DNA of 63,495 nucleotides, filler included, from Gemmatimonadota bacterium (lineage in GTDB: Bacteria > 4572-55 > J002), in NCBI GenBank assembly GCA_003697105.1. It is 4 parts of 4 records of this genome, joined end to end, with 100 filler letters (N's around TTAATTAATTAA, not from the genome) between each part and the next. Parts side by side here need not be neighbours in the genome. Positions count along the whole stretch, not along the records: positions 53,855 to 59,030 come from RFFQ01000092.1; 3 more parts are not named here. One strand, written 5' to 3'. Below the pieces are notes generated by a model. It was given only the letters and a program-made list of their open reading frames with translations. It did not search any database and was not told the origin of the DNA. Shown here in pieces: positions 24,124 to 63,495 of this stretch. Position 1 is the first letter of the stretch. The number at the start of each line of letters is the position of its first letter. Position numbers and translations under genes: made by a program.

Positions 24124-24223
24124 NNNNNNNNNNNNNNNNNNNNNNNNNNNNNNNNNNNNNNNNNNNNTTAATTAATTAANNNNNNNNNNNNNNNNNNNNN
24201 NNNNNNNNNNNNNNNNNNNNNNN
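24124..24223. other. Artificial contig linker
   Basis: N44-TTAATTAATTAA-N44, stops in all six frames. Confidence 0.98.
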
Positions 24224-53754: not shown

Positions 53755-53854
53755 NNNNNNNNNNNNNNNNNNNNNNNNNNNNNNNNNNNNNNNNNNNNTT
53801 AATTAATTAANNNNNNNNNNNNNNNNNNNNNNNNNNNNNNNNNNNNNNNNNNNN
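53755..53854. other. Artificial contig linker
   Basis: N44-TTAATTAATTAA-N44. Confidence 0.98.
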
Positions 53855-57300: not shown

Positions 57301-58314
57301 AAACTGGCGCAGGAGAGTTCTCAAAAAGCAAATGATGATTATAATCTGGTTACCATTATCGGCAATATTGGTGTACTCCATGCCTATCAAGGGAAAATGG
57401 AAGAAGCTATCCAGTATTTTAACCAACAATTAGAGCTTGCCGAGAAAACCCATAAAAAGGAAGGCATTTCGTTTGCCGTCGGTAATCTGGGCATCATTTA
57501 TGACCAATTGGGACAATTTGAACAGGCGATGTCCTTTTATCAGCGAAAGTTAGACCTTGCTCAGGAAATGAACGATAAAACTCAGATTGTTAATGTTACT
57601 ATGAATATCGGTGCGGCGTACCTCACCCAAGGACAGTACGGCTCCGCAATGGAATATTTGGAACGATCCCTTGAATTAGCTCAAACGATCGGTGACAAAC
57701 AGGGTATTGTGGAAGCGTTACTGAATATTGGTCTGATTGAGTACGAATTGGGCAAGTTCAGTTTAGCTATGAAACGACTCGGGGATTGTCTTCGGTTAAC
57801 GGATGAACTCGGTGCACGTTTGCACAAAGCGTTTGCGTTGACAACATTAGGGCGAACGTACAAAGATACGCGTTCGTATCCGCAAGCAGAATTACATCTA
57901 AATCAAGCCATTGATTTATGGAAGAATTTGGGCGCACGCTATTATATGGCACAAGCACTGGTTGAAAAAGCCGAGTTGCTCTTTATTCAAAATCAGTATG
58001 ACGAAGCTACGACCTTAGTTCAAGATGGATTGGAACATGCCCAACAAACTGGTTATGCGGAATATGTATTTAAGGCAAACCTACTTTACCATCGCATTCG
58101 TTATCAATTGGGGGATGTTACCGGGGCAATTTCAGCCCTGCAAGCGATGTTACACGGTAATCTCTCAGAACAAGATCGTGCCGACCTTGCATTTGTCCTT
58201 TGGGAAATGACCGGCGAAGAGGATTTTCGTGAAACTGCTACCGATATTTATCGGAAATTGTATGACGTTACTCCAAAGTCGTATTACAAAAAGCGCCTAA
58301 AACAATTAACTTGA
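54358..58314 (+). CDS. Class III nucleotide cyclase (tandem domains) - STAND P-loop NTPase - TPR protein (soluble adenylyl cyclase-like)
   Basis: FVDISGFT, KYAGDA, DKG...FGAP, GDVVNLAAR; Walker A GEAGMGKS; Walker B LVVEDIKWID; GNPLF; long TPR array. Confidence 0.9.
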   Translation: MAMLNLLPHFIVDRFKCNQNQGQFQAVGMFVDISGFTSMTEILMQGGEEGAEILSNILNLVFEPTVNAVYRGGGFISKYAGDAFTAFFPVTPDQTPTSLTLSTLLCAEKVQHIFQTFGFQETKFGNFKLEVKIGLSFGDCDWAIVGDESKAFFFRGELIHGITASEDRATEGMVVFDEKMISYIDKEIVSFEPLSSGFYVFRSLNRKLLKHYQLPKVLPRSRLSKSVARQFLPLSVIDYNKAGEFRNVASVFISFEGLSTLEELHLWVSAVLEGVNKFSGYFPDLEYSDKGWVILCTFGAPIAHENNISRALEFILDLQERVRAIKTLEPLRFRVGITYGKVYAGIIGGKKRCEYATIGDVVNLAARFMMKADFGQIWVSERVSDAVKHYFEIEYLDRYRFKGKSEPIPVYRLKGKRSSVQVTFAGRFVGQRSQLQKAKKVLRALSEHQFGGALYIYGEAGMGKSRFIHELREQFQDYQWAYLRCDNMLQKSFNPFTSYLAELFDLNQQSRRQNQARFKTIYRDLIQSASDHPEIVTELHRLESLIEGFLGIHDPKADSLYNQLDTKLRYVNTLYALKEIFKALSLKAPLALVVEDIKWIDPDSVRVLQTLCRNIDDFPILLILTSRYNDDQSKPSLNLDCQEDQIELTPLSGEEIETYAKSLLNGDISSKLAQNLKQNTQGNPLFIEQNILYFRESKAIIPHTVTDETGRDYTMWDLVKDEVSVPSSISDLLIARIDRLSSELKEMTQAASVVGREFDYVLLLSVLQRINKELEMTRFKTYLNIGQQENIWRTVGHVKYAFTHSMMQSAVYQMQLKQQVRELHRMVAEAIELFYLNDKQAYADLAFHYDRAENREKAMEYLFKAAETAKHNYENEKALEFYSRLIEYHEAEYDGATDNIPGVTDSEDAHQDSDRSYINLLTEKGKLFQKMGRWEEADQILKRACDLAVKSGNQRRMGKTYLNYGMIKLHKGDYDNAQKYLKLAQESSQKANDDYNLVTIIGNIGVLHAYQGKMEEAIQYFNQQLELAEKTHKKEGISFAVGNLGIIYDQLGQFEQAMSFYQRKLDLAQEMNDKTQIVNVTMNIGAAYLTQGQYGSAMEYLERSLELAQTIGDKQGIVEALLNIGLIEYELGKFSLAMKRLGDCLRLTDELGARLHKAFALTTLGRTYKDTRSYPQAELHLNQAIDLWKNLGARYYMAQALVEKAELLFIQNQYDEATTLVQDGLEHAQQTGYAEYVFKANLLYHRIRYQLGDVTGAISALQAMLHGNLSEQDRADLAFVLWEMTGEEDFRETATDIYRKLYDVTPKSYYKKRLKQLT

Positions 58315-58345
58315 TTTGTTCCATTTTAGTCTAAGGAGAGGTACT

Positions 58346-59030
58346 ATGCACCGTACATATTTATTTCTCGGTGTTGTGTGTGGTTTTCTGATATATGTTG
58401 GTTCGGTTTTCGCCCAAGATACCGACTTTCGCTTAATGGCGCCCGCGGGGGCGGGTCGCGCTGAAGGGGATAGTGTGTTGCTGCAGGTAAATCTGGACGG
58501 AGTGACGATTCCATTAGGGCTATCTCCGAATCGAGCTTTTCGCAGTTTCCAAATTGGTTCCAGCGATGCCGTAGGTCGTGTGGGCGGTTTACCATATTTT
58601 TCTGTAGGGGAAGCCGGAGAAACTCGGATCAATTTATTTAATGATGGCAGCCGTGCGTTCCGTAGTTTTCAAATTGGTTCTAGCGACGCAGTGGGCCGTA
58701 CAGACCCGGATACATTGTTGATGGTGAGTGATGAGGGGGTTACGATCCCATTGGGCCCGCAACTGTCGGGTCGGGCGTTTCGTAGTTTTCAAATCGGTTC
58801 AAGTGATGCGGTCGGTCGTGCCGGTACTGTGCCGTATCTACGAGTAGGAGAAGAAGGTACCCAGATTAATTTACTCTCTGACCCGATTCGAGCATTCCGT
58901 AGTTTTCAAATTGGCTCTAGCGACGCGGTGGGTCGTACAGAACCGGATACGTTGTTTATGGTTAGCGATGAAGGCGTCACGATTCCGCTTGGTCCGCAAC
59001 TGTCAGGTCGGGCATTTCGCAGTTTTCAAA
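58346..59030 (+). CDS. Secreted repeat protein with invariant RAFRSFQIGSSDAVGR motif; 3'-truncated by the gap
   Basis: SD AAGGAG, signal peptide (VFA-Q), motif copies at 58532, 58652, 58772, 58889 and 59009 (last partial). Confidence 0.85.
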
Positions 59031-59130
59031 NNNNNNNNNNNNNNNNNNNNNNNNNNNNNNNNNNNNNNNNNNNNTTAATTAATTAANNNNNNNNNNNNNN
59101 NNNNNNNNNNNNNNNNNNNNNNNNNNNNNN
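59031..59130. other. Artificial contig linker
   Basis: N44-TTAATTAATTAA-N44. Confidence 0.98.
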
Positions 59131-59382
59131 GTTCAGAAGATGCCGGTGCGGGGCTAGAATCAAACCCCGGCACACCCGGAATTTCCGGTATCTCAATCCC
59201 TTCCGGCGCTGCCGGTTCAGAAGATGCCGGTGCGGGGCTAGAATCAAACCCCGGCACACCCGGAATTTCCGGTATCTCAATCCCCTCTGGCGCTGCCGGT
59301 TCAGAAGATGTCGGTGCGGGGCTAGAATCAAACCCCGGCACACCCGGAATTTCCGGTATCTCAATCCCCTCTGGCGCCGCCG
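59131..59382 (-). repeat. Three near-identical 84-bp coding tandem repeats (PAAPEGIEIPEIPGVPGFDSSPAPASSE)
   Basis: Units begin at 59131, 59215 and 59299; the array runs into the gap. Confidence 0.92.
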
Positions 59383-59791
59383 GTTTGGAAGGAGAAACAC
59401 TTGTTGTTATGTCAATTCCGGGAACCTGAATTGTGTCATCGTCATCGGGTTGGGGTGCGGATTCTGGGGTGGGGGGAGTGGCTAAGGGAACCTCAATCGG
59501 GGGAACATCCCGCGGGAGAGGTTCGGGAGAGGGAGTTTCCGCAGAAGATGGTTTTTTAGTTCCAGATTCCGTGTTGTTCCGTACAATTTTCACCGTTTTC
59601 CCGAACGCCCGGTGCATGACCCGTGCTTTTTCCTCGGAAATACTTTTGAAGATAATAACCGGCGCTTTTTTGACGATCCCCAGCACTTTTTCTGGAGGCT
59701 TTTTGGTGATTTTAGAAAGTTTTAGCGCCACCGCTTTTTGTGTTTGCGGGTCTTCAATTTTATTCAGAATCACTTTATATGTTTGTGGCAT
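59131..59791 (-). CDS. Protein with N-terminal L7/L12-CTD-like domain and Pro-rich repeats; 3'-truncated
   Basis: YKVILNKI...KAVALKLSKIT...IVKKAPVIIFKSISEEKA; SD GGAG; upstream TTGACA-17-TATGCT at 59839-59867. Confidence 0.7.
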
Positions 59792-62233: not shown

Positions 62234-63495
62234 TTATTTTTTCTGCAGACCGTTCAACCAATCCTGAAATGAGTCATGATCGGTATAAAGCGCCTTCTTT
62301 TTTTTGGATTCATTTTTTGATGCTTCCGGTTCCGGTGGTGATTCTGGTGGTGCCGCAGATTTGTCTGTATCCAGATTCAGGTCAAGGTCATCGTTTACGA
62401 GTTCCGGCTCTGGGGTGGGTACGTGCTGAGCGGAGGGAATATTGGGAGCAAAATCAAAAAGGGTGTCTTCTTCAAAACCGGCATTATCGACCGGCGTAGA
62501 TTCCGTTGCCGGTGCGGTGGCGGCATCTGTTTCCGTGCCAAAATCCAGTTCAAACGTCTCTTCTTCCGAAAAATGATCGGGTACTTCTGACGTCGCAGCC
62601 GGTGTGGAATCCTCAGTAAACTCAAACGCATCATCCACCGGGGAAGATTCGTTCGCGGGTTCTTCATCCATAAACGAAAGCATCTCATCTGTGGTATCTG
62701 GGGCACTTACCGGTGTAGAACCGGTGACGGCAGGTTCGGTATCCCCAGAAAGCCGCTCATTCGCCGCAGTCAACCACGGTTCAAGCTCAATATCTTCGGC
62801 GTAGGTCTCAATGAGGGCATCTAACAGTTGCGCCGCCGTGATCTGTTTGAGTGTTTTTGGTGGAATCCAGAGTGGTAATTGTTGCACTAAGGTACGAGCT
62901 AACACGCCCGGAGAAGCAGAGACTTGCGGGGGGGGAGTTTCACCGGTAACAGGTTCAACTCCAGGAATAGCAGTAACATCTACATCCAATTCCACATCAT
63001 CCTCATCTGAGGATTCCGCTTCAAATACAAAGGCATCTTCCAGATCGGTCGTATTCGTTTCAAGGGAATCCTCCGCTTCAACGGGGATAAAATCCTCGTC
63101 TTCCGTAGGCACGTTTTCATGGCGGTCAATGAAAATATCCGAAAAATCTGTTGGGGAGCTATCCTCTGCGGTCAATTCCGTATCCACCAGATCGCCATCT
63201 AGGCTCACGGCACTTAAATCCAAACCCGCATAAGCATCGCCTCCCGATTCTTCTTCAAAATTATCAGACACCGGAAAAGCCATTTCATTATCCGCTTCCA
63301 CCGGTATCGATTCTAAACCATCTAACGCGTCAAACATGCCATCAGCGGAGTCCTCTTCTTCAAACGAGACCGGTTGTATCGTATCAAATGTACCATCTTC
63401 AATGGTTTCTTCCTCAAATGTAACCGAATCTAGGTCATCAAAGGCATCTTCACTAAGGCTACCTTCATCAAATGTAACCGAATCTAGGTCATCAA
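62234..63495 (-). CDS. Very acidic, low-complexity protein; 5'-partial (frame open to the window end)
   Basis: D/E/P-rich with recurring FD/FE motifs; C-terminal DSFQDWLNGLQKK; 54-bp tandem repeat at 63416-63495. Confidence 0.7.
   Translation of the reverse strand, partial: DDLDSVTFDEGSLSEDAFDDLDSVTFEEETIEDGTFDTIQPVSFEEEDSADGMFDALDGLESIPVEADNEMAFPVSDNFEEESGGDAYAGLDLSAVSLDGDLVDTELTAEDSSPTDFSDIFIDRHENVPTEDEDFIPVEAEDSLETNTTDLEDAFVFEAESSDEDDVELDVDVTAIPGVEPVTGETPPPQVSASPGVLARTLVQQLPLWIPPKTLKQITAAQLLDALIETYAEDIELEPWLTAANERLSGDTEPAVTGSTPVSAPDTTDEMLSFMDEEPANESSPVDDAFEFTEDSTPAATSEVPDHFSEEETFELDFGTETDAATAPATESTPVDNAGFEEDTLFDFAPNIPSAQHVPTPEPELVNDDLDLNLDTDKSAAPPESPPEPEASKNESKKKKALYTDHDSFQDWLNGLQKK

Follow-up and report, generated by a model that had tools for sequence, protein, structure and literature searches.

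The window analysed here is a stretch of 63,495 nucleotides joined from four records of a Gemmatimonadota bacterium (GCA_003697105.1, hereafter G000). The gene under study occupies nt 4492-5176 of contig C162 (5176 bp) and runs off the contig end. Its ATG at 58346 opens a reading frame of 228 amino acids that is still open at 59029/59030 (Table 1). By eye, the N-terminus has the features of a signal peptide: its n-region is basic, the core is hydrophobic, and positions -3 to -1 read V-F-A. A similar start is found in all homologs of the protein; export by the Sec route is therefore probable. Just upstream lies a gene for a protein with cyclase-homology, STAND, and TPR regions. The 31-nt spacing between the two genes, with nothing resembling a terminator, is as described in the initial annotation of this DNA.

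Table 1. Features of the repeat gene and its upstream neighbour, in window positions
Feature	Position	Strand	Basis or remark
Upstream cyclase-STAND-TPR gene, 1319 aa	54355..58314	+	Pfam; two class III cyclase-homology stretches, AAA_16, TPR; stop codon 58312-58314
Intergenic stretch, 31 nt	58315..58345	+	Shine-Dalgarno-like AAGGAGAGG at 58333-58341, ending 4 nt 5' of the ATG; no terminator-like site
Predicted Sec signal peptide MHRTYLFLGVVCGFLIYVGSVFA	58346..58414	+	Read from sequence; cleavage expected before QD
Mature N-terminal segment with first, diverged type-A hairpin DSVLLQVNLDGVTIPLGLSPN	58415..58531	+	
Motif copy 1, RAFRSFQIGSSDAVGR	58532..58579	+	
Spacer B1 VGGLPYFSVGEAGETRINLFNDGS	58580..58651	+	Aligned with the homologs' FSV..GNVGIGT.NP loop region
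Motif copy 2	58652..58699	+	G001 homologs carry ..AALHVTGG.S.F.G at the same position
Spacer A2 TDPDTLLMVSDEGVTIPLGPQLSG	58700..58771	+	
Motif copy 3	58772..58819	+	
Spacer B2 AGTVPYLRVGEEGTQINLLSDPI, 23 aa	58820..58888	+	
Motif copy 4	58889..58936	+	
Spacer A3 TEPDTLFMVSDEGVTIPLGPQLSG	58937..59008	+	
Motif copy 5, truncated after RAFRSFQ at the C162 contig end	59009..59030	+	
Artificial contig joiner, N44 + ttaattaattaa + N44, non-genomic	59031..59130	.	

The mature protein is built on a 16-residue motif present in four full copies and a cut fifth, with periods of 120/120/117/120 nt. Pairwise, the four 48-nt motif cores differ at 5-10 nucleotides, and every one of these differences is synonymous; Nei-Gojobori counting gave pS = 0.71 per pair (~12 synonymous sites) and pN = 0 (~36 non-synonymous sites). 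The codon strings cgagcttttcgc, cgtgcgttccgt, and cgggcgtttcgt were all recovered in motif copies. The spacers alternate between type A, T[DE]PDTL.MVSDEGVTIPLGPQLSG, with two copies that differ at 2 of 24 residues plus the diverged first copy, and type B, with two copies that differ at 12 of 23 (pN = 0.38). Thus, the copy number, the periods, the alternating spacers, and the identity of the motif peptides despite differing codons all held up on recounting, and selection on the motif acts at the level of the peptide. Tandem Repeats Finder did not detect the repeat, as the DNA of the copies has diverged too far.

What had been taken for a gap downstream of the repeat is the artificial joiner between contigs, and the piece that follows it, C164, is a separate contig that need not be adjacent. 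The C-terminal end is missing because the assembler broke within the repeat, and the 228 residues of the reading frame are very probably the N-terminal part of a far longer protein. Neither tblastn nor six-frame motif scans found the remainder of the gene, or another copy, in the 199-contig assembly, where no reading frame with a Peptidase_S74 (S74) or tip domain starts at a contig edge. An attempt to close the break with public reads, as had been proposed, gained little: Logan unitigs of runs X1 and X2 extend just 19 nt past the end of C162. The unitigs fragment from ~58784, and depth in run X2 is 49 versus 23, roughly double the depth of the single-copy flank. Run X3 covers only 58114-58344, and run X4 yielded no unitig matching the gene. 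The public runs listed for this DNA included none of RNA. The source lineage is present in public runs labelled hot-springs metagenome, and only 2 of the 40 nearest genomes belong to the class of the source organism.

Direct searches with the available sequence returned little. No Pfam (to E <= 1) or NCBIfam model matched the protein, S74, a domain with an SDxxxK motif, was not matched within the 228 residues that precede the missing C-terminus, and the best match among PDB sequences had an E value of 0.34. A search for homologs of similar length recovered the query alone (1 of 5740 candidates), a search for longer ones gave none among 7999 candidates, and tblastn against 50,697 phage records gave no match. 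Hits in the ESM Atlas had feature scores of 0.80-0.83 at best, too low for them to count as more than leads. One ESM Atlas row carries PF26696 PTL_trimer, a family absent from our Pfam results and one for which a literature search found no paper.

The nearest relatives are three paralogs of 657-820 aa in a single related genome, G001. All three are fibres that carry GNVGIGT..P...LHV loops together with an S74 chaperone domain or a tailspike-like tip. Two of them, encoded in tandem, are 36-37% identical to the window protein over its residues 43-225, with its 80-aa double unit set by the alignment on their 75-aa unit. The G001 fibre proteins in turn retrieved 172 relatives at E <= 1e-3; among the 120 of the 172 that were listed, at least 31 carry PF13884, and some are named at source as 'tail fiber domain-containing protein'. 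One relative, P0017, combines an Arg-flanked invariant motif and alternating spacers with a C-terminal S74 domain (2.7e-17). The domain is also present in P0135, P0136, and the fibres on contigs C48, C76, and C96 of the window genome, two fibres of which lie behind paralogous STAND genes and end in S74. A clearly related motif is found only in proteins of two genomes (G000 and G001) and of one metagenome contig, so that this homology rests on few sequences. Consequently, the initial statement that no named family could be recognised stands insofar as Pfam and NCBIfam are empty, but the homologs place the protein in the wider superfamily of tail-fibre-like and mosaic adhesive trimer (MAT) fibres, and it is thus not a new fold class.

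To examine the suggestion that the structure be modelled as monomer and trimer, both predictions were run. The AlphaFold2 monomer (4-row alignment) was uninformative, with a pLDDT of 32 and no fold, and was not used for a fold search. In contrast, a model of three copies of the mature part gave ipSAE values of 0.70, 0.70, and 0.68, compared to 0.00 for the best of 3 controls, with a partner pLDDT of 68, ~600 inter-chain contacts, and at least 82% of contacts agreeing between runs. When the tool was calibrated, 20 of 30 proteins solved as pairs attained the pass mark, as did 1 of 23 that had been solved as single chains; the calibration used two copies and the tool's own alignments, so that our run with three copies and a 4-row alignment lies outside it. 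Nothing among the PDB sequences is similar to the query, which makes it unlikely that the pass reflects a related sequence seen by the model in training. Confident inter-chain contacts recur every 40 residues (22/61/101/141 versus 25/64/104/144) and take in motif residues 43-54, 82-91, 123-134, and 162-171. The motif is therefore predicted to lie at, or buried in, the chain interface of a homotrimer, which is suggested by a confidence score and whose fold may be a triple beta-helix or another arrangement.

A single-chain beta-solenoid, or monomeric repeat adhesin, would use the same repeats without trimerising. The 40-residue strand-turn-strand periodicity fits such a structure, and the sequenced part of the gene has no C-terminal trimerisation domain. 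However, the homotrimer model passes with its many inter-chain contacts while the monomer model is unfolded, and homologs bear S74, a trimerisation chaperone according to the main text of the MAT report (PMC10769870). We therefore regard a monomeric solenoid as very improbable. Of the two models originally offered for the repeat, a trimeric fibre has gained support from both the full-length fibre homologs, with their S74 or tailspike-like tips, and the homotrimer prediction; a tip of one of these kinds very probably lies beyond the contig break, as in the relatives.

We propose, with a probability of roughly 80%, that the reading frame is the front part of a Sec-exported, parallel, intertwined homotrimeric surface fibre that resembles a phage tail fibre. 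Within one layer of the stalk, each 40-residue half-unit would account for three short beta-strands, made up of a spacer hairpin (..LLMV-SDEG-VTIPL.. or ..YFSV-GEAG-ETRINL..) and a motif strand, AFRSFQIG, whose Phe and Ile would be directed into a shared hydrophobic core. The gene would continue with more units and end in a trimerising tip, either an S74 intramolecular chaperone or a tailspike-like beta-sandwich, and it would be transcribed together with the gene for its cytoplasmic cyclase-STAND-TPR neighbour.

A different origin of the repeat was raised by phmmer against 1.84 billion representatives, in which, apart from the query and a single true homolog, 12 proteins matched at E 7e-21 to 5.6e-4 and aligned to query residues 96-217. 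The three that were scanned (P0004, P0010, and P0014) are arrays of Flg_new_2, suggesting that each 80-residue double unit might be a divergent InlB B-repeat domain, beta-grasp-like, in a monomeric beads-on-a-string array. Their ~75-aa period is near that of the double unit, and a stretch SF..S.DA.G...P.T..M.SD...T is common to both. Yet single stretches score only 14-23.5 bits, and the totals sum one weak 30-residue likeness repeatedly. Furthermore, Flg_new_2 has a motif of its own once per unit, compared to two motif copies per 80 aa in the query, the query is not matched by the Flg_new_2 model (PF18998) even at E <= 1, and profile-profile comparison of the unit alignments (hhalign) gave 2.4% probability over 28 columns. 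With no Pfam match, the hhalign result, and repeat-inflated phmmer totals, we rejected membership in this family and give the array hardly any credence.

The upstream protein matches Guanylate_cyc (1.9e-19, two stretches), AAA_16 (3.7e-16), and TPR_12 (2.8e-39; the TPR region spans about residues 850-1319) and has no signal peptide. Along its entire length it shares 38-39% identity with the products of genes that precede homologous fibre genes. A cyclase-STAND-TPR gene lies directly upstream of fibre genes at 9 loci in two genomes and on 2 metagenome contigs. The operon-like link noted at first is confirmed and recurrent, and the fibre gene appears to be co-transcribed with the STAND gene. No pairing of a cyclase-STAND-TPR gene with a secreted fibre gene was found in the literature searched, and the arrangement appears to be new. 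If the two products work together, they provide a path, open to testing, by which a fibre on the cell surface could feed into second-messenger signalling.

The motif is a property of the individual protein. Nine of the 11 multi-copy fibres of this class have a private motif that is repeated without any amino-acid change along the protein, although synonymous sites are saturated. A pattern, R-x-x-x-[RS]-S-F-x-[IV]-x-G..R, is kept in many relatives while the letters differ in every protein. Homologs without a conserved motif had been named as evidence against the original reading; conservation thus extends to the pattern but not to its letters. The spacer strand-hairpin pattern DTL..V...G[VI].[VI].L is conserved across proteins, and two paralogs suggest that the motifs change in concert after duplication of a unit. 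A rule that such motifs occur only with a STAND gene upstream was rejected, since the C96 fibre of G000, which has no STAND gene, carries an analogous invariant motif, as do the two C196 fibres of G001 (C196a/b), which follow a TIR-WD40 gene. The per-protein invariant motif appears to be new. The identity of the copies despite saturated synonymous sites points to a constraint on sameness itself, which plain fold conservation leaves unexplained.

A multi-core peptide precursor, cut at flanking Arg residues, was the second model offered initially. The exported protein would release several identical peptides of 14-16 residues, which would act as a signal and might be read by the neighbour's TPR region. 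All versions of the motif in the RSF group start and end with Arg (Lys/Gly in L040). Fungal precursors of multi-copy pheromones and polyubiquitin likewise have copies that are identical within a protein and different between proteins at saturated synonymous sites. In addition, the position of a TPR-bearing gene immediately upstream, in the same orientation, resembles RNPP-type receptor-propeptide pairs. Nevertheless, the relatives are proteins of 433-1327 aa with fibre repeats and folded C-terminal domains, S74 or tailspike-like, and their spacers keep the strand-hairpin pattern, unlike disposable linkers. The trimer prediction places the motif in the chain interface, and contig C162, which holds only the STAND and fibre genes, has no protease, maturase, or transporter gene. 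Protein-specific motifs also occur without a STAND gene upstream, and a released peptide would need re-import because the STAND protein lacks a signal peptide. Taken together, these points turn against the precursor model, which we consider very unlikely.

Besides its role as a structural strand, the private motif might be a recognition code, displayed in many copies per fibre and recognised by a partner specific to it. Where a fibre is linked to a STAND gene, this role would fall to the TPR sensor of the protein encoded just upstream. The sensor could bind the precursor while it is still unfolded and not yet exported, or else fragments set free later, and the production, export, or breakdown of the fibre would be coupled to cyclic-nucleotide signalling. 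We think this unlikely, although, if true, the two-gene units would be signalling modules of a new kind, coupled to a surface fibre. In a milder version, the private motif may prevent mixed trimers among the many paralogous fibres of one cell.

The closest described family is the MAT fibres of Bdellovibrio bacteriovorus, which comprise S74 and non-S74 groups (Caulton et al. 2024, PMC10769870; 8OND, 8ON4). As described in the main text of that report, MAT proteins have a ~130-aa conserved beta-rich domain after the signal peptide and are homotrimeric along their whole length; shared with them here are the predicted signal peptide, a probably beta-rich N-terminal region after it, and, in our model, a long trimeric stalk. 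The tip, in relatives of the window protein, is likewise S74 or another beta-sandwich, and there are many paralogs per genome, with 13 S74 matches in G001 compared to 13 S74 and 8 non-S74 proteins in the MAT report (PMC10769870). Relative P0015 matches the solved MAT fibre Bd2133 (8OND) across the GNVGIGT..P...LHV loops (E 1.2e-3), and P0017 matches 6F45, 8OND, 8ON4, and 7DC3; the solved MAT chains span only C-terminal parts.

The V-G-G/N-pi-x-x-P-x-x-x-L loops are described in the same text as capping loops of the trimeric beta-helix (PMC10769870). This motif is present in P0015 and P0016 (GNVGIGTDNPSAALHV), where it aligns to 8OND. At the corresponding position the window protein has TQINLLSDPIRAF or TRINLFNDGSRAF, with P...F kept in one copy and the glycines absent, and its own loops read TRINLFNDGS and TQINLLSDPI. 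Thus, compared to MAT fibres, it has lost the glycine signature of the GNVGIGT loops, both halves of its unit carry one invariant 16-residue motif, and the stalk beside its signal peptide consists of repeated hairpin-plus-motif units. An upstream cyclase-STAND-TPR gene is not mentioned in the passages of the MAT report consulted here, and the word 'cyclic' occurs 0 times in its main text (PMC10769870), and the organism studied here belongs to a different, poorly sampled lineage.

The upstream protein can be set beside bacterial STAND-type signalling proteins with class III cyclase, AAA_16, and TPR regions, such as the mycobacterial cyclase-ATPase-TPR-LuxR proteins (surveyed in bioRxiv 10.1101/2024.03.06.583649). 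It shares with them cyclase homology, AAA_16, and TPR but has no LuxR-type DNA-binding domain, and it has two cyclase-homology stretches in one chain. Relatives of the fibre end in PF13884, the C-terminal intramolecular chaperone of phage tail fibres and tailspikes such as the K1F endosialidase and the T5 L-shaped fibre, and trimeric beta-helical stalks are expected here as well; unlike those phage genes, however, the window gene and its relatives are chromosomal and encode Sec signal peptides. Paralogous fibres of G000 contain many YadA_head (PF05658) repeats (C48, 1.4e-53; C96, 6.1e-38), in which SFAIG resembles, by eye, the SF.IG of the window motif; the window protein itself is not matched by PF05658 at E <= 1, and the anchor of trimeric autotransporters is absent from every relative inspected. 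Trimeric fibres of the tail-fibre-like kind are beginning to look like a general means by which bacteria make contact with other cells and with surfaces. To our knowledge, the Bdellovibrio set is the only one among them to have been studied, and the present finding widens the family into a poorly sampled lineage.

The open reading frame (ORF) under study starts with an ATG 4 nt past AAGGAGAGG and 31 nt beyond the stop codon of a same-strand gene for a 1319-aa protein, and it encodes 228 aa before reaching a run of N. The motif RAFRSFQIGSSDAVGR lies at residues 63, 103, 143 and 182, and a partial fifth copy, RAFRSFQ, at residue 222 is ended by the end of the sequence. The number of copies, the periods of 120/120/117/120 nt and the purely synonymous differences between copies are as the initial annotation had described them; the four 48-nt copies show 5-10 pairwise differences, every one silent. 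By Nei-Gojobori counting, pS was 0.71 and pN 0 in the motif cores, compared to 0.61 and 0.06 in the two full A spacers (differences at 2 of 24 amino acids) and 0.83 and 0.38 in the two B spacers (12 of 23). Selection clearly acts on the motif peptide, as had been proposed. Tandem Repeats Finder did not report the array in the window DNA, its copies having diverged too far at the nucleotide level.

The gap that had been thought to interrupt this gene is an artificial contig joiner. The window contains three N44-ttaattaattaa-N44 blocks, which separate distinct contigs (C153, C162, C164 and others) of a 199-contig, 4.18-Mb assembly placed end to end, so adjacency across a block means nothing. The gene is still open where it runs off the end of contig C162 (5176 bp), and the next piece is C164. 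Using tblastn and six-frame motif scans, we found no further motif copy elsewhere in the genome, nor did we find a fibre C-terminus beginning at a contig edge of the assembly. Two public sequencing runs labelled hot springs metagenome (X1 and X2) contain the stretch; their Logan unitigs fragment toward the contig end, carry mostly third-position variants and extend only 19 nt past it. Depth in X2 was 49 in the last 251-nt unitig versus 23 in the single-copy flank. Our reading is that one or more further near-identical units lie past the end of C162 and made the assembler stop there. Neither of two X1 unitigs over the last unit was exact to the window (2 and 6 differences), so this unit may be a composite of two similar copies. 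A second gene in the window is broken at a contig edge within a repeat of three 84-nt units (97% matches), which encode a 28-aa Pro/Glu/Gly-rich unit (..EPAAPEGIEIPEIPGVPGFDSSPAP.SS); its sole Pfam hint was weak (RRM_MARF1, E 0.13). A long, very acidic ORF (Asp/Glu/Thr/Pro-rich) runs off the window end.

Coordinates of features in the window and in related loci
Feature	Sequence	Position	Strand
Stop codon (TGA) of 1319-aa gene	window	58312-58314	
ATG of repeat-bearing ORF	window	58346	
Repeat-bearing ORF	C162	4492-5176	
Start of unitig fragmentation	window	about 58784	
Region of two X1 unitigs	window	58864-59008	
N block 1	window	24124-24223	
N block 2	window	53755-53854	
N block 3	window	59031-59130	
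Second broken gene	window	59075-59791	-
84-nt tandem repeat	window	59131-59385	
Acidic ORF	window	62234-63493	-
STAND cyclase and tandem fibre-like genes	L040	11653-19661	
192-aa cyclase-like ORF (C270)	L102	735-1313	+
TIR-WD40 gene (C196)	L101	5456-8887	-

The 228-aa protein had no match in Pfam or NCBIfam, and word-seeded searches returned nothing besides itself. At E <= 0.01, matches were obtained in 3 of 41 genomes searched: its own genome (G000), G001, which is of the same class, and G024, where the match was weak (E 0.003) and contained an internal stop. Only two of the 40 nearest genomes belong to the class of the window genome, indicating that the lineage is poorly sampled. Tandem genes in G001 encode P0015 (657 aa) and P0016 (661 aa), which are 36-37% identical to window residues 43-225 and consist of a signal peptide and then three ~75-aa units, each running from a DTL..V...G[VI].V.L hairpin through RVSRSFRVHGGATR to FSV...GNVGIGTDNP.AALHVTGG. 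With P0015 as query, 172 proteins were found at E <= 1e-3; by manual count, 31 of the 120 matches listed contain the Peptidase_S74 chaperone domain (PF13884; S74), and some are annotated at source as "tail fiber domain-containing protein". The best of these matches, P0017 (820 aa), is built like the window protein, with ten copies of RVSSSSFSILGGAGR between alternating spacers and a C-terminal Peptidase_S74 (2.7e-17). Because P0015, P0016 and P0017 are all encoded in one genome (G041 and G001 gave identical matches), the three closest relatives are paralogs and not three independent organisms.

A phmmer search of 1.84 billion representatives returned 14 proteins at E <= 1e-3: the query, P0003 (its G001 homolog) and 12 others aligning to query residues 96-217, up to E 7e-21. 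The three of these 12 that were scanned are arrays of Flg_new_2 (divergent InlB B-repeat). We rejected membership of this family on scores, Pfam and hhalign: the likeness is 14-23.5 bits per stretch, the totals being one weak 30-residue likeness summed repeatedly; the Pfam Flg_new_2 model did not match the window protein; and hhalign of the two unit alignments gave a probability of 2.4%.

An AlphaFold2 monomer from a four-row alignment failed (pLDDT 32). A homotrimer of the 205-aa mature part gave ipSAE values of 0.70, 0.70 and 0.68 versus 0.00 in the best of three controls, with a partner pLDDT of 68 and ~600 contacts, at least 82% of them common to runs. In calibration, 20 of 30 proteins with a solved pair structure and 1 of 23 with a solved single-chain structure came up to the mark, counts that are only rough for a three-copy model since the calibration used two copies and the tool's own alignments. 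The most confident contacts join same-height residues between chains, with a spacing of 40 residues. The predicted interface includes the motif (mature residues 43-54, 82-91, 123-134 and 162-171) and the spacer hairpins, with motif Ile47 contacting Ile32, Phe45 and Val64 of another chain. The model fits a parallel, in-register, intertwined trimer whose structural period is the 40-aa half-unit. In the model, motif strands contact spacer strands of the neighbouring chains, not other motif copies, so like-on-like stacking is no obvious reason for the sameness of the copies. These scores, together with the S74-bearing fibre relatives, support the trimeric fibre model of the initial annotation. We conclude, with a probability of about 0.8, that the ORF encodes the N-terminal, stalk-forming part of a secreted homotrimeric fibre, like the mosaic adhesive trimer (MAT) fibres of Bdellovibrio and S74 tail fibres, truncated by the assembly. 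The other model offered, a multi-core precursor cleaved into peptides, is quite unlikely for this ORF.

Fibres of the same N-terminal class were gathered from G000, G001 and two metagenome contigs. Motif copies are identical in amino acids in 9 of the 11 multi-copy fibres, the exceptions being C76 (three variants in eight copies) and C196b (two copies, two residues differing). In the seven RSF-group proteins, all 934 of 934 pairwise residue comparisons within motifs were identical; identity over the 20 residues on each side was 5-38% (ungapped). In C59 and C8, some motif serines switch between TCN and AGY codons from copy to copy. Two of the C121 copies are identical to each other in DNA, indicating that unit duplication is still ongoing. 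The rule that each fibre has one private motif, the same in every copy, deserves follow-up.

Motifs of the fibres (boundaries for C76, C96 and C196 drawn by eye after sequence reading)
Group	Fibre	Motif	Copies	Nucleotide differences between copies
RSF	window	RAFRSFQIGSSDAVGR	4 + partial fifth	
RSF	G000 C48	RAPARSFAIGQGSSLNRE	2	7 of 54
RSF	G001 C27a/b	RVSRSFRVHGGATR	3	4-8 of 42
RSF	G001 C121	RVSSSSFSILGGAGR	10	mean 8.8 of 45
RSF	G001 C59	RIAERSFSIEGGTTR	3	12-15 of 45
RSF	G001 C8	RVGSRSFGIGTSGSAR	2	14 of 48
RSF	G001 C11	RALESSFSVGGGGVR	1	
RSF	G001 C4	RTTPSRSFIIAGGGEGAR	1	
RSF	G001 C270a/b	RVASRSFSINTGGNAR	1	
RSF	L040	KGLSRSFCISTASSKG	1	
Quite different motif, same place	G000 C96	GGGYQFRGRGGGG	4	
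Quite different motif, same place	G001 C196a	RSSHRTATCTQGNGGGT	3	
Quite different motif, same place	G000 C76	RDAIGEF.ILGQ.NLR.	8	

We compared the units of C27a and C59 with the motif left out, that is, over short flanks of two proteins. Unit 3 of C27a scored 122 with unit 3 of C59, and 100 and 122 with its own units 1 and 2; unit 3 of C59 scored 82 and 89 with its own units 1 and 2, below its 122 with C27a. Both third units continue into ..LD[IV]DG..PGTMRW.G.DF.G.DG..W.SFT. This hints at, but does not establish, the presence of two or more units before these paralogs split. Each now has one motif throughout its units, which would hint at either selection for sameness, with parallel motif change in every copy, or old homogenisation by short conversion tracts. 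A simpler history is possible, in which each paralog was amplified independently from one unit and then held by absolute purifying selection.

The 1319-aa upstream protein contains two cyclase-homology stretches, AAA_16 and TPR repeats (STAND gene). The genes immediately preceding P0015/P0016 and P0017 share this architecture, and their products are 38-39% identical to the 1319-aa protein end to end; the further flanks of these loci differ. In G000, a 1010-aa YadA_head + S74 fibre lies 60 nt downstream of a 1250-aa STAND cyclase on C48, and a 1327-aa S74 fibre 337 nt downstream of another on C76. G001 has six pairs (C27, C121, C11, C59, C8, C4), with gaps of <=53 nt or short overlaps. The genomic STAND genes examined were the best-scoring ones or those sharing a contig with S74, and these pair counts are not a rate. 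Metagenome contigs scanned with the STAND alignment gave 80 loci, two of them with fibre-like ORFs: two at L019 and at least five, same-strand and in tandem, at L040, with S74 in the first at each. At three others the downstream gene encodes a large secreted protein of a different sort, namely a cadherin/PKD protein, one with T9SS sorting and a C10 peptidase; the rest had unrelated downstream genes, none within the distance limit, or too little sequence. On a Bacteroidia MAG contig (L008) the order is reversed, fibre then STAND-like ORF. Paralogs without a downstream fibre are present on G000 C161, G001 C27 (a second one) and C96 of the related genome G002. This lineage shows a great expansion of the cyclase-AAA_16-TPR family, with 11 matches at E <= 1e-30 in G000 (4.2 Mb), 42 in G001 (6.5 Mb) and 14 in G002 (4.1 Mb).

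S74 had no match in G002 despite its many STAND genes. Two of the three S74 matches in G000, and 3 of the 13 in G001, lie downstream of a STAND cyclase. Another two in G001 are at a contig end, on C270. A 192-aa ORF there, convergent to the two S74 fibre genes, may be a remnant, as its match to the STAND family (E 4e-32) is confined to the N-terminal cyclase part. Two on C196 are tandem same-strand fibres with their own near-invariant motif, directly behind a 1142-aa protein that combines three TIR domains with WD40 repeats; the latter is a second type of large repeat-sensor protein to be paired with fibre genes. Five, on C91, C53, C10 (two) and C82 (L104-L107), are of another N-terminal class, in which the signal peptide leads into ..QGVLRD..G..V.DG.Y...F.[LF]Y. 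The next gene after each encodes a very large protein (1046-2566 aa; the one scanned is Laminin_G_3 + Big_5); no STAND gene lies nearby, and a repeated motif is absent. The last is phage-like in appearance. Fibres that lack a STAND gene can carry invariant motifs as well, which argues against the motif being, in a simple and general form, the ligand of the STAND protein; for linked pairs, it might still be so.

In a FastTree phylogeny of 36 STAND proteins (31 of 60 phmmer-matched ORFs of fetched loci, taken by length, and five from G000/G001, leaving out four later-found G001 paralogs), the five fibre-linked G000/G001 proteins and one non-linked metagenome sequence formed one clade with SH-like support of 100; L019 and L040 fell elsewhere. 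The fibre label changed 4 times versus 6.5 in shuffles, with 3 of 500 shuffles as low, a test that overstates clustering because kin share labels. A literature search by combined terms found no report of a cyclase-STAND gene paired with a fibre gene. This operon-like pairing of a fibre gene with the gene of a cytoplasmic cyclase-STAND-TPR protein deserves follow-up.

Against PDB sequences, P0015 matched Bd2133 (8OND; E 1.2e-3) over GNVGIGT..P...LHV, and P0017 matched 6F45, 8OND, 8ON4 and 7DC3 (MyRF); the window protein had no match (best E 0.34). The non-S74 C-terminal domain of P0015, modelled from a six-row alignment, had a mean pLDDT of 67 (86-94 over residues 40-125). Its top Foldseek neighbours in the PDB were the C-terminal part of the cyanophage tailspike 7EEA (E 1.8e-3, rmsd 2.4 over 73 columns) and those of Klebsiella capsule depolymerases and R-type pyocin fibres (6CL6, E 1.6e-2). 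No neighbour reached E 1e-3, and the predicted resemblance to tailspike/pyocin-fibre tips is thus a lead. 8OND and 8ON4 are from Caulton et al. 2024 (PMC10769870), which describes the Bdellovibrio MAT fibres as intertwined trimeric beta-helices, 13 with the S74 chaperone-protease and 8 without, with the capping-loop consensus V-G-G/N-pi-x-x-P-x-x-x-L. As a probable member of this MAT / S74 tail-fibre-like kind, the window protein is a variant whose loop signature has decayed and whose two half-units share one invariant motif.
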